From: an uncultured Acidobacteriota bacterium
GTDB taxonomy: Bacteria; Acidobacteriota; Thermoanaerobaculia; UBA5066; Gp7-AA6
Direction: 5' to 3'
DNA length: 64,000 nt
Assembly (NCBI GenBank): GCA_963824165.1
Contig: CAWGOM010000017.1
Location: 901,020 to 965,019 of the forward strand
Shown here piece by piece: positions 7,187 to 36,432 of the stretch; the first letter of the stretch is position 1; each line of letters opens with the position of its first letter. The notes under the pieces were generated by a model. It did not search any database. It was not told where the DNA came from and saw only the letters and a list, made by a program, of their open reading frames with translations. The translations under genes were made by a program, and so were the position numbers.

Positions 7187-7318
7187 CCTATCGCGCAGCA
7201 TCGGGCGGACGCGCGCTCGGCCCCCCCAGTCCCTCGCGAATCCGCCGCCTCGCCCGCTCGCGACAATGAGTATGTCGAGAGATTCGCCGGCGAGCTCCCC
7301 TGAAAAGGAGTGGCGATC

Positions 7319-10300
7319 ATGACAAAGAAACTTACCCGGACGTTCGTACTCTGCCTCCTGGTGCTGGCCGACCGGCGCCTCGCTGCGCAGAACGGTCCCG
7401 ACAACGACGCCGACGCCGCGCCCGGCTACACGAACAGCGTCTTCCACCACGACGCGTTCGACTCGATCAACCTCTACAACGGCCAGCTCACCGTCCCGAT
7501 CGCCCTCGGCCCGTCCTACCCGATCGGGCCGAAGCTGCGGTTCCAGCTCACGCTGGTCTACAACTCGCGCGTCGACGACTACGGCGCGCCCAAGCCCGCC
7601 CAGCAGCAGGCGAGCTTCGTGTACAAGCCCCTCGCGGGGAATTCTTCGATGCCGATCGGCTGGGAGCTCTCGCTGGGCGCGATCAAGACGTGCCGCCACG
7701 GCAACACGACCGCCCCGTGCTACGTCGCGCCGGACGGGAGCCAGCACCTCTTCCTCCGCAGCCAGGGCAACGGCCGGGTCACAGGCGACGGGAGCCCGTA
7801 CTTCCTGAAGGGGTCGGGCCCCTACGAGATGTGGGACGGGGACGGCAACCACCACGTCTTCGACCAGCAGGCCTCGGGCTTCGACGACTCGCCCTTCGAC
7901 GGCTTCACGCACGACTTCGGGCGCGGCCGCGACGGCTGGTACCTCGGGTCCCTCACCGACCCGCACGGCAACGGCTACGGCGTCACCTACTGGACCGGAG
8001 CGCATCCGAGATGGACGTACGGCGCATCGACCTGCGACGCCGGGACGACCGGGCTCATGCAGATGCGCGCGCCGTCCGGCACGGGCGGATGGGTCCCCAG
8101 GGACATCACGCTGCCCTCCGGGCAGACGGTCCGCGTCGAGCGCGGACACAACGGCTTCCTCGACGGCATGGTGCTTTCGGCGACCTTTCCCGTCTTTGCC
8201 AACGGCGCCCTGACGACACGGACCTGGACCCTCGCCTACGACGCGCCCTACACGGGCTACGTGCACTCCTGCGGAACCGGGACGGTGCCGGCGAATCTCC
8301 AGCGCTTGAAGGAACTGCGGCTTCCCTCCGACCTGACCGCGAGCCCCAAGTTCCAGTTCGCCCAGACGAGCCTTCTCACCCGACTGACGCTGCCGACGGG
8401 CGCAACCGCCGAGTACTGTTACGGCGGCTACACGTTCTTTCACGGGCGCGCCGGCGCGGTCGTCCCGAACTGCCCGGGGCTGCCCGCCCCGTCCCAGGCG
8501 TTCACGACCATCTCCCCGACCGCTTTCCTTTGTGGGACATCGGCCGGCGAGCCGGAGCCTCCCCTCGACGCCACGGCGGCGTGCACCGAGGACAACGATT
8601 CGCGCTGGGTGGACTCGCAGACCGGGGTCCTGAAGCGGACCGTGACCGAACCGCTGCGGGGCCGTGTGTCGACGACGACCTACACGCAGTACGCCTTTCC
8701 GTTCGGCGAGTCCGGATCCGCCTCCTCGCCGGGGGAGCCGCAGACGCTGACGGTCGTCGTGCTTCCGCCGACCGATCAGAACGCGGTGGGCAGCGCCGGG
8801 GTGCGCCGCGCCCAGGCCACGCTCTTTCTCGCGAGCCCGAAGCTCGCGCAGGCGCCCCCCGGCACGACGCGCCCGAGCGTGCCCGGCGACCGCGTCGGCG
8901 CCGACATCGAGCAGCGCTTCTTCGAAACGGACCCGAACCAAGGTTCGCCGGCCTCGCCCGCCTGCCCCGGCACCTCCGCCGACGCGCCCTTCTGCGCGAG
9001 CAAGGCGCTGCGCACCGTCCGGCGGACGTTCGAGTACGACGACGCGGGCAACCTCGAGGGAAACCGGCGCCTCGCGAGCGAGCGCACGATCTTCGGGGCG
9101 GGGACCTGCTCGAGCTGCCCGTGGCACCAGGTCGCGTTCTCGAACTCCTCCGGCTCGTGGGAGTCCAACGGGCGGCACTACGAGAACGAGGCCCACTCCG
9201 GCACGCTCGGCAACGACGCGCGGACGACGTACACCGACTGGGCGCCCGTGAACTGGTCCTCGGGCCCGTCCGCCGGAGGCCTCGTGCTGCCGAACCTGTT
9301 CGCCGAGCGCCGGATCACCGAAGGCGCATCGGTCCGCGACGAGTATTTCGAGTTCGACGGCGAAAGCGGGTTCCTCAGGGGTTCCCTCGTCTACGACTCC
9401 GCCCGCGACGTCGCCTTCCTCCGCTGCCGTTACGACGACGGCGCGGGAAGCGTCGACCGGGAGTTCTCGAAGACGTTTTCCGCGTCGACCACGCCCTCCC
9501 GGACCTACTGCTCCGACAACCACCCCGTCTTCCCGGCTTCCGTCGGTACCGACGGCGACGCTTTCGGGAAGGCCTACACGTGGCGCAACGGCGAGCTGCT
9601 CTCCTCGCGCTGGATCAACGGCTCGGCCGGCACGTCCACGTTCTGGCTGCGCAGCTACGACCGCGACGCGACGACCGGGTGGGTCACCGCCTCCCGCGAC
9701 GGCGCGGGGCTCGCGACGAAGTTCTCGTACGACGTCCTCGGACGCGTCACGCAGATCACGCCGCCGGCCTCCGGCGAGCACCGGACTTTCGTCTGCTACG
9801 AGGGCCCCAACGCGACCACCGCCTACCGGGCCGCCTCGGCGCAGGCCTGCCCGGTCGCGCCCGGAAGCGCGAACGCGAAGACCTGGGAGCACTACGACTA
9901 CGACGGCCTCGGGCGCGTCGCCCGCGAGAAGGCGCTGCGCCCGGGCGCCGGCGTTTCCAAGCGGTTCAACCTGTTCGACGCGGCCGGCAACGCCCACTTC
10001 CGTTCCGAGTGGGTCGCCGACTCGACCTCCGAGTCGGTGTCGGCCGACCTCGGCACGGCCTGCGTCTTCTCGAACGGCAGCTTCGCCACGGCGCGGCCGT
10101 CCTCGGCGCCCGGGCACCTGGCAGATGTGCTTCGACCCGTTCGGCCGGCCCCAGCAGGTCGTGGGCTCGAAGCACTCGAGCCTCCAGACGGTCGACCGCA
10201 AGGACGGGTCGACCTGGTACAGCAACACGCTCGAGGCGATGCTGACCTACTGCCTCAACGCGACCTTCGCGAACCTCCAGTCGGCCGCGTGCTCCGCGGG

Positions 10301-13103
10301 CGGCCTGAACGCCACGACGAAGACCCGCAAGGACGCCTTCGGCCGGGCGACGAGCGTCACGGAACCGTCGAACGACGTCACCTCCTACGCCTGGGACGTG
10401 AACGCGAAGCTCACCCGGGTGACCCAGGGAACCCAGATCCGCAGCTTCGCATTCGACGCGGCCGGCATGCTGCGTTCCGAGACGACGCCGGAAGGCGGCA
10501 CCGTCACGTACGACTCGATCGGCAGCCTCGGCAACGTGCGCCAGGAGACCCGGCCCGGCAGCCTCGTGCTGACCCGGCGGTTCGACTTCGCGGGCCGCAT
10601 CACGCGCGAGGAGGCCGGCGCCACGAAGTACGCGGTCCACTGCTACGACGGCGCCGGAACGTGCGACGACGGCGCAGCCAACTTCGCAGGCGGCGCGAGC
10701 CCGGCCGGTAAGCTGACGCGGCGGTACGGCTACAACCACCTGCCGACGATCGGCCCCGTGGTGGACGAGACGCTCGAGTACAGCGGCCCCGGTGGCCGTC
10801 TCTCGAAGCTGACGACCGCCGCGGGCAACGGCGACCTCGCGACGTCGGCCTCGCAGACCTGGTCCTACGACGCCCTGGGGCTGCCCTCCTCGCACTCCCA
10901 TCCCCGCGCCGCGGGCGCCCCGGCGTTTCCCGTGACGTTCGGGTACGGCTACGGGCTCCCGACCTCGATCGCCGCCAACGGCCAGACCGTCGTGCCCGCC
11001 GCGGCGTACGGCCCCGCCGCCGCGCTGACTTCATGGACCGCCGGCAACTCCGGCACGCCCGTGGTCACGACGATCGCGCCCGACGCGAGCCTTCTGCCGC
11101 GTCCGGCGAGCATTTCAAACGCCCTCTGGAGCTCGGGCGCCTACGCCTACGACGGCGCCGGCGACATCCTGAAGCTCGGAACGACCGACGCGTTCACGTA
11201 CGACAGCCGGGCGCGGCTGACCTCGGCCAGGTTCGGATCGACGACCCGGGCCTTCGCCTACGACCGCTGGGGCAACCTCACGCAGAACGGCGCGACGGGA
11301 TTCACGCTCGATGCCGCGACCAACCGGATCACCTCGGGCGGCGCCCAGTACGACGCCCGCGGCAACATGACCGCCCGCACGGGCGAGACCATGAGCTACG
11401 ACCTCCTCGACCGCCAGTACCGCAACTCCACCGCCGGCGCCGACTGGGTCTATCTCTTCGCCGGCTCGGGCGAGCGCGTGGCCAAGTTCCCCGCGAAGGC
11501 CACCGTTCTCCGCCGCGAGATGGCGCGCTACGTCGCCGAGGCCAACGGCCTCGCCAAGGGCTGGACGCTGCCCGCCTGCACCGGCCCCGTTCTCCGACGT
11601 CTCCTGCTCCGACCCCGACGCCCGCCACATCCAGCTCGTCCACGACGAGGGCATCACTGCCGGCTGCGGCACGAACCCGCTTCAATACTGCCCCGACGCG
11701 ACGCTCACCCGCGCCCAGATGGCCGTCTTTCTCGTCAAGGGGTACAAGCCCGACGGCTTTTCGCCGCCGCCGTGCGCGGGCACGTTCCAGGACGTCTCGT
11801 GCTCGGGCGCCTACGCCGCCTTCGCGCCCTGGATCGAGCAGCTCTACCGCGACGGCGTCACCGCCGGCTGCGGCACGAGCCCCCTCCAGTTCTGCCCCGG
11901 CAGCACCGTCGGCGAGTGGGAGATGCTCGTCTGGCTCGCGAAGGCCCCCGGCGCGGCTCTCCGGGCTCGCTCTTCTGGAGCGCGTACCACCCCGTCCCCC
12001 GCGGCACGATCTATACTTTCCGCGACGACTCCAACCGCGTTGTGACCGAGATGGCGGGAGGCTCGACCGGGGCTTCGACGGCCACCCTTTCGGTGACCCG
12101 GGACAACGTGTTCCTCGGCAACCTCCTCGTGGCCTCGTACGTCGCGTCGCCTGCCGGCTGGCAGTACACGGCCTCCGACCATCTCGGCAGCCCCCGCGTC
12201 GTCTTCAACCAGGCGCGTCAGATCGTCGAGACCCACAAGTACTGGCCGTACGGCGAAGACACCACGACCACGCCCCCGACCCAGCGCCTCGCCTACTGCC
12301 TGATGGAGCGCGACTCGGAGAGCACGCGGTTCTACGACCACGCGCGAAACCACGACCACGGGCTGGGGAGGTTCCTGTCGCCGGATCGGGTCGGGGGCAC
12401 CCCGGCCAATCCGCAGTCATGGAACCGGTACGCGTACACGCTGAACAACCCGATGAAGTACGTGGATCCGGACGGGAGGCTGACGATCGTGGTGCACGGG
12501 ACATGGGCAGCGAGCAACCCAACGTTCACACCCGGTGGAGTCTTCTATCAACGCGTGACCGGGTCGGTGCCCGACCGCGCCTATGCGTCGTTCACCTGGT
12601 CCGGGGGCAACACCACCGGAGCCCGATCGCAGGCCGCGAACTCTCTCGCGAACTTCATCCGTCACTACAAGTTCGCGCCCGGGGAACAACTCAATCTCAT
12701 TGCCCACAGCCATGGCGGCAACGTCGCCATCGCGGCAGTCAACCTGGGACTCGGCCGCGCCGTGGACAATCTTGTCACGCTTGGAACGCCGGCCCGGGCC
12801 GACTTCGATCTATCCAACAAGAGCTCAGTGAGCAGCTTTCTGGCGGTCTCCGACACTAAGGACCCGATTCAGGTGCTCGGTGGACGGTGGTTCAACAGCC
12901 CGATATGGGGCGAGTGGGGTCCGGCAGGGCGGTCCCTGTCCGGCGCCGCGAACATCCTGGTCAATACGCCCCTGACCGAACTCTTCAAGGCGCACGAGCA
13001 ACTCCACGAGTCCGACCTTCTCTGGAGAACCATTTCGAGACTCATGAACACACCTGAAACGATGTCGACGCTGGATCGTCAGCACTATTGGATTCACGAC
13101 TGA
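7319..13103 (+). CDS. RHS/YD-repeat polymorphic toxin with Sec signal, SLH-like insert and alpha/beta-hydrolase C-terminal toxin domain (frame breaks near 10115, 11588, 11952)
   Basis: AAGGAG then ATG at 7319. Signal MTKKLTRTFVLCLLVLA. Many YD repeats (YDxxGR / FDxxG). RHS core GLGRFLSPD...NRYAYTLNNPMKYVDPDG. Confidence 0.9.
12476..13100 (+). other. RHS C-terminal toxin domain: lipase/esterase-like alpha/beta hydrolase
   Basis: Begins right after DPDG. LTIVVHGTW, nucleophile elbow AHSHGG, LVTLGTP, SDTKDPIQV, KAHEQLHES. GC is visibly lower than in the repeat shell. Confidence 0.65.
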
Positions 13104-16310: not shown

Positions 16311-19024
<2,714 letters not shown>

Positions 19025-19028
<4 letters not shown>

Positions 19029-21104
19029 TTTTCCACCACGATTTCGGAAAAGTCCGCCAGCCGCGTGAATTCTTGCTGAATCGAGGCGAGGAGCGCCAGC
19101 CGGTTCCGGCGCAGGTCCTCCTCCGGGGCGTTGACGAGCACGTCGACGAAGAAGCGGTCGAGCGAAGGGGAAAGCGAGGCGATCGTCTCCATGGCCTCCC
19201 GGTAGTGCCGCTCGGCCGAGAAGCCGTCGATCGCCTGCTTGGCCTGCAGGAAGTCCGAGGCCAGCGCCCGCTCGGCGGGCTCGCGGTAGAGCTCGGGCGA
19301 GGGCGCGCCGGGAGTCGCATCGCCGACGATGTTGCGGATCCGCTTGGCGGCGAGGATCGAGAGACTTGAAGTCCATGTGCCGGCGGGCGTCGGAGAGCGC
19401 CCGCGCCCGGTCGGCCGCGTCGGCGAAGTCCCAGACGCCGACGTTCAGCACCGCCGAGATCTCGTCGTAGCTCGCGCCGCGCCGCTCGAGCAGGCTCCGG
19501 AGCCGGTCGGCGAAGAACCGTCCGAGCTCCTCGACGGCCTTCTCGGGCTCGAGGCCGGGCAGTCCCGCGGGGAAGAGCGACAGGGCCTTGCGCGCGATCG
19601 GCCGCCAGTCGGTCCGCCAGTTGCGTGCGATCGCGATCGACACGATGCCGAGCGCCGCACGGCGAAGCCCGTAGGGGTCCTTCGATCCCGTCGGCACGAG
19701 GCCGACGCGGAAGAGGCCGCACAGCGAATCGAACCGGTCGGCCAGCGACAGGATCGCGCCCGACGCCTCGCGCGGCGGATCGTCGGAGCCGGAGGCCGGG
19801 CGGTACTGGTCGTAGACGGCCTTCCACACCGAGTCGGGGTACCGCTCGCGGCGGGCGTAAATGCCGCCGATCACGCCCTGGAGGTCCGTGAACTCCTTGA
19901 CGACGAGGCTCGTCAGGTCCGCCTTGGAGAGCAGGCCGGCGGTGCGCGCCGCCTCCACGAGGTCGGGGCGGCCGACCTGGACGGCGATCGCCTCGGCGAG
20001 GTCCTGGATGCGCGCCGTCTTCTGGCGATAGTCGCCGAGCTTCTCCTGGAAGGTCAGGCGCGAGAGCTTCGGCAGCTGCGCCTCGAGCCTCCCCTTCGCG
20101 TCCTCCTCGTAGAAGAATCGGGCGTCGGCCAGGCGGGCGTTGAGGACCCACTCGCACCCCTTGGCGACGAAGCCCTTGCGGTCGGCGTCGTTGTCCATCA
20201 CGGCCACGAAGTGCGGCAGCAGCCCCCCGGGGCCGCGCACCGGGAGGAACTTCTGGTGTGTGCGCATCACGGTGACGTTGATCTCCTCCGGCAGCTCGAG
20301 GAACTCCGGCGCGAAGGTCCCGCGCACGAGGCCCGGCCACTCGACGAGGTCGGCCAGCGTGTTCGCGAGATCCGCGTGCGCTTCGATCTGGCCGCCGACT
20401 TCGGACGCCAGGGCGCGCGCCTTCTCGAGGATCGCGATCCGGCGGACCTCGGGATCGGGCTCGACGAAGGCCTTGCGGAGCTTGGCGAGGTAGTCGTCGG
20501 GGCCCGTGACGGCGAACTCGCCGTCCGAGAGCACGCGATGCCCCATCGTCCGGTCGCCAGCCGCGACGCCGTAGAGCTCGAGCGGGACGACGCGGCCGCC
20601 GAGAAGCGCCACGACGCCCCGCACCGGCCGCACGAACGACCGGTCGCCCGCGCCCCAGCGCATCGTCTTCGGGAAGGCCAGGCCGCCGACGACCCGCGGC
20701 AGGACCTCGGCGAGCACCTCGGCCGCCGCGCGGCCCGGAGTCGTCTTGCGCGCGGCGACGGTCCGGCCGCGCGGCGAGTCGACCACGACGAGATCGGCCA
20801 CGTCGACCTTCTGCGCCTTCGCGAAGCCCTCGGCCGCTCGCGTGGGCTTGCCGTCCTTGCCGAAGGCGCTCGCCTCGGGCGGGCCGAGGACCTCGGCGAA
20901 GCGATCCTCCTGGCGCTCCGGCAGCCCCCGGAGGATGAGCACCAGCCGCCGCAGCGTGGCGTACGTCTCGATCCCGGCCGGCGCGAGCCCTTCGCCGGCG
21001 AGGGCGTCGCCCGCGGCGCGGGAAAGCTCCAGGCGCGCCGGCAGCAGCGCCGGCGCCGGGATCTCCTCCGTTCGGATTTCCAGCAGGAAGTCTTGCGTGT
21101 TCAC
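19025..21104 (-). CDS. glyS: glycine--tRNA ligase beta subunit (frame break near 19365)
   Basis: [17 protein letters not shown] start (GTG). KTMRWG, and a C-terminal anticodon-binding part ending ...[14 protein letters not shown]. Its TGA overlaps the ppdK ATG. Confidence 0.9.
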
Positions 21105-24489: not shown

Positions 24490-25622
24490 CGGACCTGCGT
24501 CTCCTCGTTTCGCCGATCCGAGCTTCTCCCCCTCGCCGAGAAGACGCTCGCGGGCGAGCGGCTCTCCTTCGAGGACGGCGTCCGGCTCTTCCAGACGCGG
24601 GACTTCCTCGGCCTCGGCCGCCTCGCCAACCACGTCCGCGAGGCGCGGCACGGCAACCTCGCCTTCTACAACGTCAACCGCTACCTGAACCCGACGAACC
24701 TCTGCTGGGTCGACTGCGCCCTGTGCGCCTGGGCCAAGAAGGTCAACGAGCCCGGCGGCTACGAGATGGCGATCGACGAGTGCGTGGCCGAGGCGGGCAA
24801 GGGCTACAGCGAGGCCGTCACGGAGTTCCACATCGTCGGCGGGCCTCCACCCGACGTGGCCCTTCGAGTACTACACGGGGCTCCTCTCCGCGCTCAAGGA
24901 GCGCTTCCCCGGCGTGCATCTGAAGGCCTGGACGATGGTCGAGCTCGACTGGATCGCGAAGGTCGGGAACCGGACGCTGCCCGACGCGATCCGGGAGCTG
25001 AAGGCCGCGGGATGGACTCCTGCCCGGGCGGAGGCGCCGAGATCTTCGCGAAGCGCGTCCGGGACATCATCTGCACCAACAAGATCTCGGGCGAGCGCTG
25101 GCTCGAGGTCGCGCGCGAGTGCCACCGGCAGGGCGTTCGGACCAACGCCACGATGCTGTACGGCCACGTGGAGACGGTCGAGGAGCGGGTGGATCATCTG
25201 CTGCGCCTGCGCGCGCTCCAGGACGAGACGGGCGGGATCCCGGGCCTGATTCCCCTGGCCTTCCACCCGAGAACACGCCGCTCGCCCACCTGCCCGCCTC
25301 GACCGGCCAGCTCGACCTGCGCGTGATCGCCGTCTCGCGGCTGCTGCTCGACAACGTCCCGCACATCAAGGCCTACTGGATCCAGATCGGGACGAAGCTC
25401 GCCCAGGTGGCGCTCTTCTTCGGCGCCGACGACCTCGTCGGCACCGTCGTCGACGAGATCATCACGCACGCGGCGGGCGCGACGACGGCCTCGGGACTGA
25501 CGCGCGCCGACTTCGAGCGCATCATCCGCGAGTCGGGCCGCGAGCCCTACGAGCGCGACTCGGAGTACCGGCGCGTCGAGCGGCGAGGGCCGCGCGCGGA
25601 GCCGGTCCCGGCGCTGGCGTGA
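24486..25622 (+). CDS. radical-SAM menaquinone (futalosine pathway) enzyme, MqnE/MqnC family (about 4 frame breaks)
   Basis: YNVNRYLNPTNLCWVDCALCAW (CxxxCxxC), TEFHIVGG, KAWTMVELDW, GGGAEIF, TNATMLYGHVE, IPLAFHPENT, DDLVGTVVDEIITHAAG. Confidence 0.75.
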
Positions 25623-26558
25623 TCCCGGGCCGCCGCCTTCGCGCCGGCGCCGGCGCGCTCGCGGCCGCCCTCTTCGCTCGCCTGCTCCAGCGGCGCCTAC
25701 GACACGAAGCCGCGCGTCGGCGTCGCCGACGGCGATCCCATCGTCCAGATGGAGAAGGCCAGACCGGGCCTCGTCGCCCCCCGTCTCGTTCCGCTCGCCC
25801 GGCACACCGACCCGCCGTTTCGCAACGAGCGGGTCCTGGGCGTCACCCTCGCCGAGCCCGCTCGGATGTATCCCGATCGGCCTGCTCGACGGGCACCCGG
25901 TCGTCGACGACGAGGCGGGCGGCGTGCCCTTCGTGGTGGTCCGCGATCCGATGACGGACCTCGCGACGCGTCCTCGACCGCCGCGTCGCCGGGCGCACGC
26001 TCACCTTCGACGACCCGGGAGCGGTCTGGCGGGGCGCCCTCGTCCTGCGGGACCGCGAGACGGGGACCTTCTGGTCGCCGGTCACCGGCAACGCGCTCGC
26101 GGGCCCGCTCGCCGGAGAGGCGCTGACCGTCCTTCCGGCGGCCGTCACGACGGCCGAGGCCTGGCGGGAGCTCTACCCGTCGACGCTGTGCCTCGAGACG
26201 GGCGAGCTGACGGCCGTGTCGCTGACGCTGCGCCTCTACGCGGCCTCGGCGACGGAGGGCGTTTCCGGCGGAAAGACGAAGGACACGCGATTCGCGCCCG
26301 AAGGAGACGGTTTTCTTCGTCGCCGGGCGGAACGAGGCGCTCGCCTTCGCCGCCGCGTACGTCCGCGAGAAGAAGTCCGTCCCGGCCGCCCTCGAGGGCG
26401 ACGCGCTGACGATCGAGTGGGACGGCGCCGTGCGCGTTCCCCGCGCCTTTCGCCAGGTCGAGGCGGCGCGCCAGGAGCTTCCCGTCGTGCCGATGTACTG
26501 GTTCGCGCTCCTGGAGCAGTTCCCTACGGTCCGGGCGCTGGGGGCCCCGGGGTCGTAG
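25619..26558 (+). CDS. DUF3179-like lipoprotein (about 4 frame breaks)
   Basis: Lipobox LFA-C. VLGVTLAEPARMYPIGLL, VVDDEAGGVPFVV, LTFDD...LVLRDRETGTFWSPVTGNALAGPLAG, AWRELYP. The TAG stop is embedded in a GTAGGGGC motif. Confidence 0.55.
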
Positions 26559-30990: not shown

Positions 30991-31018
30991 GGTATGGTAG
31001 TATTGCTCGGGTATGGTA
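30991..31018 (+). promoter_or_regulatory. direct repeat GGTATGGTA x2 upstream of / overlapping the vapB start (candidate RHH operator)
   Basis: GGTATGGTA at 30991-30999 and 31010-31018. Confidence 0.35.
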
Positions 31019-31294
31019 AAGATGACTTTCTCCCTGGACGAGGCCACGGCCGACCGGCTGCGGACCTCCGCCGACCGGCTCGCCCGGCCGCAGAGCGCCG
31101 TCGTCCGAGAAGCCATTCGCGAGTACGCGGAGCGTCTCGGTAATCTCGGCGAGGCCGAGCGCCGCCGCCTGCTCGCGACGTTCGACGACGTGGTGGCGAA
31201 GATTCCCCGGCGCGCGGCCTCCGCCGTCGACGCCGAGATCCGGGCCATCCGGGCCGCGCGTCGCCGCGGCGGCCGGCGCAGCGCCGGACGGTGA
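31013..31294 (+). CDS. vapB: ribbon-helix-helix (CopG-type) antitoxin
   Basis: MTFSLDEATADRLRTSADRLARPQSAVVREAIREYAE is an RHH N-terminus. Alternative ATG at 31022. Overlaps the PIN gene (GTGA). Confidence 0.75.
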   Translation: MVKMTFSLDEATADRLRTSADRLARPQSAVVREAIREYAERLGNLGEAERRRLLATFDDVVAKIPRRAASAVDAEIRAIRAARRRGGRRSAGR

Positions 31295-31665
31295 TCCACC
31301 TCGACACCTCGGTTCTCGTCGACGCGCTCTCGGGGCCCCTCCGATCCGCCCCGGCGCTGCGCGCAGCGATCGCCGCCGGCGAGCGCATCGAGATTTCGAG
31401 CCTCGTCCTCTACGAGTGGCTTCGTGGCCCCCGGCGTCCCGAAGAGGTCGCCGCGCAGGAGGCGCTCCTTCCTCGCGCGGCGGCCGCCCCCTTCGGCAGC
31501 CCGGAAGCGCGCGTCGCGGCGGAGCTCTACCGGGCGGTCGCGCGTCCGCGCGGACGGGAGATCGATCTGGCGATCGCGGCCTGCGCCATCGTGCGGGGCG
31601 CCCGCCTCTGGACCCTGAACGCCGGGGACTTCCGGGGCGTGCCGCGCCTCCAGCTCTACTCCTAG
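31291..31665 (+). CDS. vapC: PIN-domain ribonuclease toxin
   Basis: IHLDTSVLVD (first acidic residue), SSLVLYEW, DLAIAACAIVRGARLWTLNAGDF. Intact 124 aa. Confidence 0.8.
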   Translation: MIHLDTSVLVDALSGPLRSAPALRAAIAAGERIEISSLVLYEWLRGPRRPEEVAAQEALLPRAAAAPFGSPEARVAAELYRAVARPRGREIDLAIAACAIVRGARLWTLNAGDFRGVPRLQLYS

Positions 31666-31693: not shown

Positions 31694-33105
<1,412 letters not shown>

Positions 33106-33107
33106 GC

Positions 33108-33581
33108 GTGCCCGAGCCCGTCCCGGTCTTCTCCTCCCTCCACGTCGACTTTCTCCTGCTCGCTTCGGCCCGGCTCGCCCTCGCCGCCCTGCTCGGCGCT
33201 CTCCTCGGCATCCAGCGGGAGCGCGTCCACAGCGCGGCCGGACTGCGCACGCACATCCTCGTCGCGGTCGGAGCGGCGCTGATCGTCCTCTCGGGAATCC
33301 AGTCGGGCTTCGCGCACGACGCGTCGAGCCGGGTGATCCAGGGAATCGTCGCGGGCATCGGGTTTCTCGGCGCCGGAACGATCCTCAAGATCGGCGAGCG
33401 CGTCGAGGTGCTCGGACTGACGACGGCGGCGAGCATCTGGATGACGGCGGCCGTCGGCGTCGCCGCGGGCCTCGGCCACCTCTGGCTCTCCGGGGTCGCG
33501 ACGGTGATCGGCTGGCTCGTCCTGGGGCCGTTGAAGCGGCTCGAGAAGCGCCAGCCGGGCGAGGGTCCGCCGCGGGGCTGA
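33108..33581 (+). CDS. MgtC/SapB family membrane protein (reads in frame with the fumC tail in this sequence)
   Basis: [17 protein letters not shown]...[17 protein letters not shown]...[15 protein letters not shown]...[19 protein letters not shown]. Possible GVG start at 33108 (GTG). Confidence 0.7.
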
Positions 33582-33589
33582 CGCCGCCC

Positions 33590-35460
33590 CTACCGCAGCA
33601 GCGCGGCGAGCTTCGTCTCGGCCTCGGCGTGAAGGCCGGGGGGCGCCCCGTAGAAGGCCCCCGCCGCTTTCCCCTCCCGGTCGAAGACCAGCAGCGTCGG
33701 GACGGCGCTCACGTCGCCGAAGGAGCGGACGAGGTCGGGCGGCCCGAGCACCCAGGTCAGCGGCAGGTCGAGCTCGCCCACGAGCTTGCGGACCTTCGCC
33801 TCCTCGGATTCGATCGCCACGGCCGCGACGACGATCTTCTCCCCGTAGCGCTTCTTGAGCTCGCCGAGCCAGCCGAGCGTGCCGCGACAGGGAGGGCACC
33901 AGGTCGCCCAGAACTCGACGAGCACGACGCGGCCCTTCAGGTCCTCGGGCGAGAGCTTCCTTCCGTCGAGGTCCGTCAGCGTCACCGCCGGATAGGCCGC
34001 GACCTCGCTCGACTTCGACGGCGCGGCCGCGGCGACGCGCGTCGGCCCTGCGCCCGGCAAGAAGCAGGTCGATCATGCGCGTCAGGTCCGCCTGGAACCG
34101 TTCGTGGGCGGCGGCGCTCTTGAGCGGCGCGTAGCGGCCGCCCTCTTCCTTCTGGCCCTTTCCGTAGAAGCCGAAGTCGTTGGGAGTCGCGACGAGCACG
34201 TCGTCGACGAAGATCGCCGGATAGCGCGTCACGCCGAAGCGCTTCGCGAGAACGGAGTCGCCGTAGTTCTCCGAGACGAACCGCGCCCTGCCTCCGAACT
34301 TCTGGACGACGCTCTGGGCCAGCAAACTTGCCGGGTCGGAGAGATTTCAGGTGTAGGGCCAGCGCACCAGGGTGACGGTGACCGTCGCGGGCGGCGGACG
34401 CCGGGCGGGGCCGGGCCGGCTCGAGCGCCGCGAAGTAGCGCGGCAGGACCTCGGCCACGACCGCCGAGGCCTGCGCGGGGGAGGCCCCCGCGGCGGCGGA
34501 CGCGGTCGTCGGCCTCGCCGGCCTCGAGGAACATCCGCCCGATGCTCTGGTCCACCCCGCCGGTCTCGGACAGCCGCGGGCGGAATTCCGCGAGGCGCGC
34601 CTTCGCCTGATCGGTCGTGAGCGAGGGGACGCGGCCGGACAGGGGTGCGGCGCGCAGGACCGCCTGGAGGTAGCGCAGCATCGCCCCGTACGAAAGCCCG
34701 GCGGCGTCGAGCTCGCGCGCCTCCTTCAGCGTCGAGCTCGCCGCGATGAACTCGCGGTGCCTGTCGATCGAGGCCGGGGGCCGGTAGGCGGACAGGAGCT
34801 CCCCTTCGAGCGCGTCGAGCTCGCCCTGGAGGCTGCGCACCGGCGGCGGGACGCAGGGCCGACGGCGTCGACAGCGTGCGGCAGAAGACGGCGAGGTCCC
34901 GCTGCGCCTGCGCGACCCCGAGGTAGTAGAAGCCGACCTCGGGCATCGTGTTGCGCTCGTACTCGAGGCTCGCCTCGTAGAAGACGCGCACGGCCGGCAC
35001 CGAGGCCTCGCCGACGGCGCGCACCGCGGCCGGCGTCACGCCGTCGAGGGCCTTCGGCGAGGGAGCGCCGAGCTCCGTCGCGAGGTCCGTGCCCATCCGC
35101 GCCCACGCGGCCTCGAACGCCGCGTCGCTCTTGCGCTCGGCCGCCGGCAGCCGCCCGAGATACTTCGAGGCTTCGAGGTCCGGCTGAACGCCGGCCAGGC
35201 GCTGAAGGGCGAGCAGGCGCCTTCCGTCCCGCATGGCCTCCTCGACGCGGCCCATCGCGGGCGTCGCGCTCTCCTTGATCTGGAGCCACATCTCGTCCTT
35301 CGAGTCGTTCGACCGCGAGGTACTGCGACCAGCTCTGGATCGCGGCGGCCAGCGGATCCGAGTGCGGCGGCGCGGCCGCGATCGAGGCCAGCGACGCCGT
35401 GGCGACGGCCGCGGCCGCGAGGAGGACGAGTCGAGCCGGGCGCATCGCGCCCCGGAGCAT
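33590..35460 (-). CDS. secreted multidomain thiol-disulfide oxidoreductase: helical N-domain, Trx-like domain with in-frame TGA (34349..34347), and TlpA-like domain (WCPPC); about 5 frame breaks
   Basis: Signal [46 protein letters not shown]...[11 protein letters not shown]-terminal [17 protein letters not shown]...VPTLLVFD. Confidence 0.6.
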
Positions 35461-35525
35461 CGCACGGGAGCCGGCCGCGAATCGCCGGGCGGAGCTCTCG
35501 GGCTCTCATGGGAAAGTCCTCGGGC

Positions 35526-36432
35526 CTAGTCGGACTTCCCGCCGGCCATTCGCTCGAGCTCCGCGACCTCGAGCGCGCGGACCTCGCGGGCGTCAGGGCG
35601 GCGAGCTCCTCGAGCGTGCGGGTCTTCCCCGCCTCGCTCGCGATCCGATAGCCCAGGGCGTAGCCCGGAGCGCGACGGGATGTCGAGCTCGGCGCCGCCC
35701 AGGAAGTAACCGCGCGTAGTCCTCGCGCTTCTCGCTGTCGAGCAGGCGCAGGACCTCGCCCGCGAGCCGGGGGACCATCCGCCTCGGCGATCGACGGCAT
35801 GCAGCAGATCTGCGACTCCGGCAGCTTCGGGTTCAGCCGCCGGCTGACGTAGGTCGCGAGACCCTCGGCCCACAGCGCCCAGCCGAACGGTGTCCGGATC
35901 CTCGGCCACGGCCTCGCTCGTGGTAGACGTGAAAGAGCTCGTGCACGACGAGCGGCGAGAGCTCCTCCTTCAGCCGCGCGATGACGTCGAGACCGAACAT
36001 GAGCGCGGTCTTCCCGTTCACGTCGCGCGTCGCGCCGTCGAAGGCGCCGGCCGAGTAGAGAAAGTACACGGGCGTCGAGCACTGAAAGCGCGGGAACGTC
36101 TTGCGGAACGCGTCGAGCTCCGCCGGCAGCTCCGCGGAGAGCCGTTGCGAGAGCTCCCGCATGGAAGCCTCGATCGCCGGGACCCCCTCGAGCGACTTCG
36201 GTACGAACTCCGCCGGCGGCTTCGGCACGCCGTGAAAGACGCCTTCGTAGACGGCGGCGTTGGGCTTGCGGACGAGCTCCTCGAAGAGGCGGTATTGCTC
36301 GGCCGCGGGCCTGCCCTGCGGGCCTGCTCCCAGAAGCTCCAGAACGCGGGCATCAGGTCCTTCGTCCGACAACCCGGTCCGGCAGGCGAGGGCCGCCGCC
36401 AGGGACGAGCAGTGCGGAGCGAACGGAGTCAC
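35526..36432 (-). CDS. putative Zn-metalloprotease (HExxH), DUF2268-like; several frame breaks
   Basis: SPLVVHELFHVYHE, then WAEGLATYVSRRL and GYALGYRIASEAG, traced through three frames. Confidence 0.45.

Follow-up and report, generated by a model that had tools for sequence, protein, structure and literature searches.

The question raised by this locus is whether a TGA codon inside a minus-strand gene ends the protein or is read as selenocysteine (Sec). The gene (33590..35460) lies in a stretch of 64,000 nucleotides (nt), hereafter the window, taken from contig CAWGOM010000017.1 of an uncultured Acidobacteriota bacterium (assembly GCA_963824165.1, positions 901,020 to 965,019 of the forward strand). 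The initial annotation, made from the letters of the window, proposed that the TGA replaces the N-terminal catalytic cysteine codon of a thioredoxin-fold domain and that a hairpin similar to a bacterial selenocysteine insertion sequence (SECIS) follows it. We believe that the product is a single exported protein, some 620 residues long, with Sec at the TGA, in which a Sec-carrying domain of the thioredoxin fold precedes a TlpA-like domain, and we give this reading a probability of roughly 0.85. The Sec interpretation is strongly supported by the comparison of related sequences, rather than by the window alone.

The codon itself stands where it had been placed, directly after ...VTLVRWPYT (34349..34347), and a coordinate check also upheld the Trp at position -4 from it and the proline of RYP at +43 (codon 34220..34218). 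When the N-terminal two-thirds of the protein, as reconstructed, served as the query of a homologue search, 2,030 proteins matched. Among the best 120 of these, 118 have RWP[YF]T as their very last residues; of the other two, one is a frameshifted gene call and one is the protein P0010, which reads through with Cys. A scan of one genome per species yielded 201 stretches encoding relatives, of which 80 were kept, nearly all of them metagenome-assembled genomes of Acidobacteriota (Thermoanaerobaculia, Holophagales, Vicinamibacteria). The UGA is conserved: the codon after WPYT is TGA in 82/82 related loci (about 80 species-level genomes), and in none is it TAA or TAG; only the locus of P0010 (L003) has TGC (Cys) there. 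Three remoter members with 57-60% identity give the same picture. The family is almost confined to Acidobacteriota and is nearly always in the Sec form. In the relative L001, TGA is an ordinary stop that ends 19 of 23 other genes, so the genetic code has not been reassigned.

The message is translated beyond the UGA. The residues directly past it (N/G, L/I/V, S, D, P, A) are kept while their codons vary synonymously (AAC/AAT, TCC/TCG/TCT, GAC/GAT, CCG/CCA; codon +2 alternates conservatively between L, I and V), a pattern that marks translated sequence. P0010, with 621 residues, has WPYT-C-NLSDPAALL at this place, and a WCPPC domain comes after it. An exhaustive HMMER search with the Sec domain against 1.84 billion representative proteins gave 128 relatives; 104 of the 112 newly recovered ones start just past the TGA position, and those that cross it carry Cys in six cases (always as C-x-L-S-D-P), Asp in one and Arg in one. 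Together with P0010, the remoter homologues P0209, P0221, P0223, P0228, P0234 and P0239 therefore make seven read-through proteins with Cys in the TGA column, all with C-x-L-S-D-P, which is the homologue pattern that the initial annotation had suggested looking for. A scan of the related loci (~742 kb) for further in-frame TGAs with a U/C signature left only this family, all further candidates proving to be artefacts, either antisense or out of frame. A scan of JGI metagenomes for Cys forms (RWPYTCN) gave 27 chance matches and no family member.

Several Cys-carrying homologues show that the domain also occurs in other architectures (P0239, P0223, P0228, P0209, P0234, P0263): alone behind a signal peptide (131-173 residues), with the N-domain and lacking the TlpA domain, or behind an apparent ECF-sigma-like region that includes a membrane segment. 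In one member among these architectures, Asp stands instead of Cys or Sec.

Does the RNA itself bear a constraint? The predicted hairpin CCGGCA-AGUU-UGCUGG is present at 34334..34319, and its loop holds G23 and U24 (numbering starts at the U of UGA). Over 75 sequences, the family consensus at nt 16-31 is CC(G/A)GCA-(A/G)GU(U/C)-UGCUGG with 100% of the pair cells paired. Pair 18:29 is G-U in some sequences and A-U in others, and positions 22:25 are A-U in 42 and G-C in 33 sequences with zero exceptions; this double change requires at least ~10 independent events on a neighbour-joining tree, with no intermediate seen. In the 78 distinct Sec-form sequences, G23 and U24 are invariant (78/78), and codons +6 to +9 are always GCA, (A/G)GU, (U/C)UG and CUG, so that their third-position entropy is zero against 1.0-1.75 bits at most other four-fold sites. 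These frozen codons are rarer choices for a genome of 70% G+C.

The published bacterial SECIS consensus model comprises an apical loop of 3-9 nt, an upper stem of 4-16 bp, a G within the first two bases of the loop, a UGA-to-loop distance of 16-37 nt and a minimum free energy (MFE) of at most -7.5 kcal/mol (PMC13188914). The SECIS comparison recommended in the initial annotation places the family within every constraint of that model (PMC13188914): the loop has 4 nt, the stem 6 bp, G23 is the second loop base in 78/78 sequences, the spacing from UGA is 18 nt, and the MFE of UGA plus 45 nt ranges from -9.3 to -20.6 kcal/mol, with -12.2 for the window copy. The hairpin alone has -7.2 kcal/mol in the window variant, and the MFE structure contains the hairpin in 74 of the 78 sequences. 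The 10-mer GCARGTYTGC occurs 86 times in ~760 kb, and 82 of these occurrences have TGA exactly 18 nt upstream; they are 81 genes of the family and fdhF itself.

The E. coli K-12 fdhF sequence, fetched for comparison, reads UGACACGGCCCAUCGGUUGCAGGUCUGCACC. Its GGUC loop holds G23 and U24 in the same register as the family hairpin, its nt 19-28 (GCAGGUCUGC) are identical in 34 family members at an equal distance from UGA, the hairpin in both cases lies within the coding sequence directly past UGA, and the apex encodes Ala-Gly-Leu in both. The two differ in the stem under the apex (GGUU/ACC in fdhF, CC(G/A)/UGG in the family), in the bulged U17, which the family hairpin lacks, in the lower stem, for which the family gives no support, and in the loop of the window variant (AGUU against GGUC). 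The host proteins are unrelated.

A natural control is provided by the Cys forms. The Cys-form locus L118 encodes the same peptide DPASLL by CCC GCG AGC CTG CTT, and its hairpin is nearly without stability (-1.1 kcal/mol vs -7.2 and -7.9). The hairpin is lost likewise in the Cys form L119; L120, also a Cys form, retains five pairs of the outer stem at reduced stability (-4.2 kcal/mol) but not the G23/U24 loop, and in L003, a close Cys form, most of the stem remains while G23 is gone. What the frozen nucleotides go with is therefore the UGA, not the protein. On these grounds we consider decoding of the UGA as Sec by a SelB-type system very likely; the dependence on SelB, and the insertion of Sec rather than Cys, are probable.

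We note that L118 (GCA_018268315.1, contig JAFDWU010000002.1) encodes the full-length Cys homologue P0221, whose gene is flanked by an exbB-exbD-tonB-TonB-receptor cluster and by the cytochrome c maturation genes ccmB and ccmC. These surroundings possibly hint at a function in the cell envelope.

The following points weigh against our reading. The window fold of 34280-34352 has z = +0.93, with 165 of 200 shuffles folding equally well or better; since the single fold is no better than shuffles, the significance of the hairpin comes from the comparison with relatives only. A permissive Rfam scan of 33000-36000 gave no match to a SECIS family and three chance matches (two miRNA families and one CRISPR repeat). 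A bulged U17 in the upper stem matters for SelB binding in E. coli, and here positions 16-18 pair continuously with 29-31, so there is no such bulge. A lower stem CUCU/AGAG was rejected because it is paired in only 82% of cells, many of them broken. In the model of the Sec domain, the confidence (predicted local distance difference test, pLDDT) is ~61 around the Sec, which is positioned five residues before the modelled start of the helix. The window copy of the gene carries five frameshifts and is not intact as written in the record. No conserved operon partner or neighbourhood was found beyond close relatives, and the catalytic cycle outlined below, drawn by analogy, is a weak point. Finally, tblastn with the SelA, SelB and SelD proteins of E. 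coli, and ARAGORN, found neither selA, selB, selD nor tRNA-Sec in the 64-kb window or in related loci totalling ~742 kb; as this sample makes up well under 1% of the genomes concerned, the negative says little. Near L088, an AIRS-domain gene considered as a lead to SelD reads as ThiL-like (29% identity to SelD). As to the phylum, three selenoprotein families are reported in Acidobacteria (PMC1794560), Occallatibacter riparius is listed as a Sec user (PMC12013277), and Sec-type hydrogenases occur in Acidobacteriota metagenome-assembled genomes (PMC13582414).

One could also propose that the UGA is recoded to a residue other than Sec, either to Cys by a SelB-dependent tRNA(ReC)/SelC* or to another residue by an acidobacterial allo-tRNA suppressor. 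Allo-tRNAs, possible nonsense suppressors, are indeed reported in Acidobacteria (PMC5389517), SelC*/tRNA(ReC) decodes UGA as Cys given a following SECIS (PMC13582414), and the present data do not tell Sec and Cys apart at the protein level. However, SelC* is reported in Firmicutes, Thermodesulfobacteria, Nitrospirae and Proteobacteria, and not in Acidobacteria (PMC5389517); the UGA and the SECIS are kept in ~200 species where one base change would give Cys, which argues that the product differs from Cys; and a general suppressor would have no need for a G23/U24 hairpin at a fixed spacing. We therefore regard such recoding as improbable.

Another possibility is that the window gene is a decaying pseudogene, or that the record is too error-ridden for its TGA to have a meaning. 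The gene runs from the ATG at 35460..35458 to the TAG at 33592..33590, and in three-frame translation its protein-like reading switches frame five times, with five frame-breaking insertions in 1.9 kb. The two long open reading frame (ORF) pieces that the initial annotation joined in one frame (34347..35465 and 32484..34325) do share the true frame around the TGA, from about 34398 to 34036, where it is unbroken with ~16 codons before the TGA and ~103 after it; elsewhere the five insertions make their frame wrong. Compared with five relatives, the region 31700..36400 has 14 window-private insertions of 1-2 nt and one deletion, ~1 per 300 nt, with varied bases and none in homopolymers; the rest of the window is probably affected likewise. 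Insertions of this kind also disrupt the adjoining housekeeping genes, fumC being spread over four frames, and for this reason we presume that they may be noise in the record (assembly or reads), not decay of the selenoprotein-candidate gene. Moreover, L004 and L001, the closest relatives with an intact gene, have exactly this TGA and this hairpin. We hold this explanation to be very unlikely.

The proposal that the TGA is a true stop, leaving an N-domain protein that ends in WPYT and a separate thioredoxin-TlpA protein that starts from, e.g., the TTG at 34325 (the scenario that the initial annotation itself had named as a refutation), agrees with the two genes annotated by all gene callers, for which that TTG serves as a start, with TGA as the commonest stop in these genomes and with the Sec machinery unseen in the sampled DNA, but is hardly credible: the supposed TTG is CUG in 34 of 78 members with no other conserved start, the residues from TGA to TTG are conserved as protein, the split would strip strand beta1 and the reactive residue from the thioredoxin fold, seven homologues read through with Cys, 82/82 TGA has a naive chance of ~2e-7 at ~83% TGA among stops (shared ancestry ignored), and the frozen synonymous sites and the covariation would be left without explanation.

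The layout of the selenoprotein gene that we prefer is given in Table 1.

Table 1. Features of the candidate selenoprotein gene in the window and the basis of each
Feature	Position	Strand	Basis
Whole gene	33590..35460	-	Three-frame translation, synteny with L001 and gene calls, full-length Cys homologue P0010 (621 residues)
Predicted signal peptide, 28 residues	35377..35460	-	Inferred from sequence
All-alpha N-domain, ~320 residues	34399..35376	-	AlphaFold model of P0002
Sec-carrying thioredoxin-fold domain, beta1 (TVTVTLVR) to alpha3	34036..34398	-	Model and fold search
In-frame TGA, inferred Sec codon, motif WPYT-U-N-L-S-D-P	34347..34349	-	82/82 TGA in related loci, Cys homologues
SECIS apical hairpin CCGGCA-AGUU-UGCUGG	34319..34334	-	nt 16-31 from U of UGA; paired in 75/75
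Hairpin loop	34328..34325	-	G23 = 34327, U24 = 34326
Cis-Pro candidate RYP	34226..34218	-	Weak alignment by hidden Markov model puts RYP on TrxA P76
TlpA/ResA-like thioredoxin domain	33593..34030	-	Pfam matches, WCPPC at 33901..33887
Five window-private 1-nt insertions, each a +1 frame shift	34035..35317 (~35317, 34851, 34506, 34399, 34035)	-	Alignment with five relatives

The N-terminus is probably a signal peptide, judging by its sequence, and the protein would then be exported; the N-terminal helix is modelled at low confidence, and the homologue P0209 has a lipobox-like LLVVIAGC. The N-domain consists of helices only in the AlphaFold model (pLDDT 89.7), has no Pfam or NCBIfam family, and gave no structural match in the PDB (best Foldseek E 0.8). 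The initial annotation did not recognise the architecture, and its order, an all-alpha N-domain lacking a known relative, the Sec domain and the TlpA domain, has been upheld. One database protein, P0006 (Pfam PF10026), has the N-domain fused to the product of the gene upstream (35833..36432, minus strand); this gene is conserved only among close relatives and is also broken by private insertions.

The Sec domain has the thioredoxin fold, as had been assigned from its residues; the assignment now has the support of a structure model and of a fold search. The model was built on the Cys homologue P0010 (pLDDT 73) and has the topology b-a-b-a-b-b-a in the order beta1, a nine-residue loop with the Cys, alpha1, beta2, alpha2, beta3, beta4, alpha3. 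The top 50 Foldseek matches in the PDB are all thioredoxin, PDI or QSOX thioredoxin domains, with a probability of 0.95-1.0 (>=0.98 in 49/50) and E about 1e-2. Tests of the fold by sequence alone stayed below threshold: a PDB profile search with the domain gave only sub-threshold matches to thioredoxin and PDI mixed with endoplasmin, and a profile link between the Sec and TlpA domains was rejected (hhalign probability 7%). As to the exact position of the Sec, the ungapped extension of a weak hidden Markov model alignment to E. coli TrxA puts it on C32, and a MAFFT alignment puts the Ser at +3 there, a shift of four residues; its equivalence to Cys32 of thioredoxin is plausible but ambiguous.

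The downstream TlpA-like domain is confirmed with its WCPPC. Its Pfam matches all exceed the cut-offs (Redoxin 1.2e-15, 58 bits vs 26.6; AhpC-TSA 1e-11; Thioredoxin 4.5e-10), and it scores under the NCBIfam cut-offs for TlpA (NF047696, 56 vs 230 bits) and ResA (NF002854, 62 vs 170).

In bacterial Sec insertion, a hairpin immediately 3' of the UGA is bound by SelB, which carries GTP and Sec-tRNA(Sec). For the gene considered here we propose that SelB bound to Sec-tRNA(Sec) would be recruited by the hairpin 16-31 nt downstream of the UGA, whose small loop, bounded by the covarying 22:25 pair, would expose G23 and U24, as in E. coli fdhF. The Sec may then be a nucleophile attacking an oxidised periplasmic substrate (peroxide, sulfenic acid or disulfide), and the fused CPPC domain may regenerate it by resolving a selenenylsulfide or selenenic acid, being itself kept reduced by a membrane electron donor of the DsbD/CcdA type. 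This division of roles is suggested by the lone Sec with Ser at +3, the lack of a partner Cys and the fused CPPC domain.

Known families offer partial parallels. With TlpA, ResA and CcmG the protein shares the C-terminal Redoxin/AhpC-TSA/Thioredoxin match, the WCPPC and probable export, and one Cys-form member adjoins ccmB and ccmC; unlike them, it has two more domains fused ahead of its TlpA domain, its Sec is not in the TlpA domain, and the scores are far under the NCBIfam cut-offs. Neisseria PilB/MsrAB combines periplasmic methionine sulfoxide reductase domains with a TlpA-like domain in one fusion, and thus also joins a DsbD-fed recycling domain to an exported redox enzyme; it differs in the reverse domain order, unrelated catalytic domains and the absence of selenium. 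The ResA-like WAxxUGC family (NF041054) and the UGC TlpA-family are selenoproteins with a TlpA-like domain (PMC13188914), but there Sec replaces Cys in the TlpA active site, whereas here the CPPC is ordinary and the Sec is in the upstream domain; the NF041054 score is 28 bits vs a cut-off of 300. The GPx-like UxxT, Prx-like cd02970 UxxS and ArsC UxxS families have one reactive Sec near the start of alpha1 in a thioredoxin-type fold, a place that the Sec considered here plausibly shares, and likewise Ser or Thr at +3 in place of the second Cys and a need for an external or fused reductant (PMC13188914). No sequence similarity to them was detected in Pfam or NCBIfam, and WPYT-U-x-L-S-D-P with the long beta1-alpha1 loop is peculiar to the family of the window.

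Among the selenoprotein models of NCBIfam release 20, none comes near its cut-off on the full-length Cys homologue, the N-domain or the Sec domain; the best scores are 28 vs 300 bits for WAxxUGC_long, 11.6 vs 52 for TsoX and 10.6 vs 185 for PDO_seleno_TRX. NCBIfam as a whole has no match to the N-domain and only a chance match of TIGR03757 (E 0.02) to the Sec domain. A 2026 review table of prokaryotic selenoproteins has U-x-x-S only in a rhodanese form, ArsC and a Prx-like family, and its TlpA-type selenoproteins carry Sec inside the TlpA motif (PMC13188914); the family motif is absent from the searchable literature. The selenoprotein family is apparently undescribed, and its insertion system would be the canonical one. 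Four things set it apart: close relatives use Sec almost exclusively, the Sec has a domain to itself that is joined to a normal TlpA domain, the N-domain is novel, and the SECIS apex resembles that of fdhF. For the fuller statement, that this is an undescribed, Acidobacteriota-wide and essentially obligate-Sec family (~80 Sec : 1 Cys in close relatives) representing a new selenium-dependent redox enzyme that is exported, carries its own TlpA domain for recycling and binds its substrate through a domain of novel fold, we consider the chances about even.

In every public record examined, the TGA divides the gene into two annotations, a hypothetical protein and a truncated "TlpA family" protein; ~200 species-level genomes and ~2,000 database proteins appear to be mis-annotated in this way. 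The family would add to the selenoproteins one that matches no NCBIfam selenoprotein model tested and is unlike the families of the 2026 review by motif and domain, and it would mean that widespread soil Acidobacteriota use selenium in their cell envelope; in that case, many of the abundant bacteria of soil rely on selenium there. The large excess of Sec over Cys among close relatives is the reverse of the usual pattern and is useful for asking why Sec is kept. The frozen codons of the Sec forms and the free codons of the Cys forms, encoding the same peptide, make a clean natural control of SECIS function. If our reading is true, the family SECIS is near enough to that of fdhF for decoding in E. 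coli, and the near-identity of the apex makes a direct test in that species straightforward.

A DUF3179 gene at ~25600..26550 (plus strand; its L001 counterpart is at 18222..19151) belongs to a family counted among the known selenoprotein families (U-x-x-C/T). It was considered as a second selenoprotein and rejected, as the L001 copy has no Cys or Sec motif. Three other neighbours, all on the plus strand, deserve mention. The class II fumarase gene fumC (31694..33581) is split over four frames, and no stop separates its last piece from an MgtC-like membrane protein, the two forming one ORF of 303 residues (32670..33581) that corresponds to two genes in L001. At ~7300..12530, a RHS/YD-repeat-like protein of ~1,700 residues extends over several frames, by eye, with a segment similar to S-layer homology near its end. 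Between sdhB and fumC (31013..31665) there is, as judged by eye from the translations, an apparent type II toxin-antitoxin pair, in which a ribbon-helix-helix-like antitoxin of 93 residues is followed, with a 4-nt overlap, by a PIN/VapC-like protein of 124 residues.

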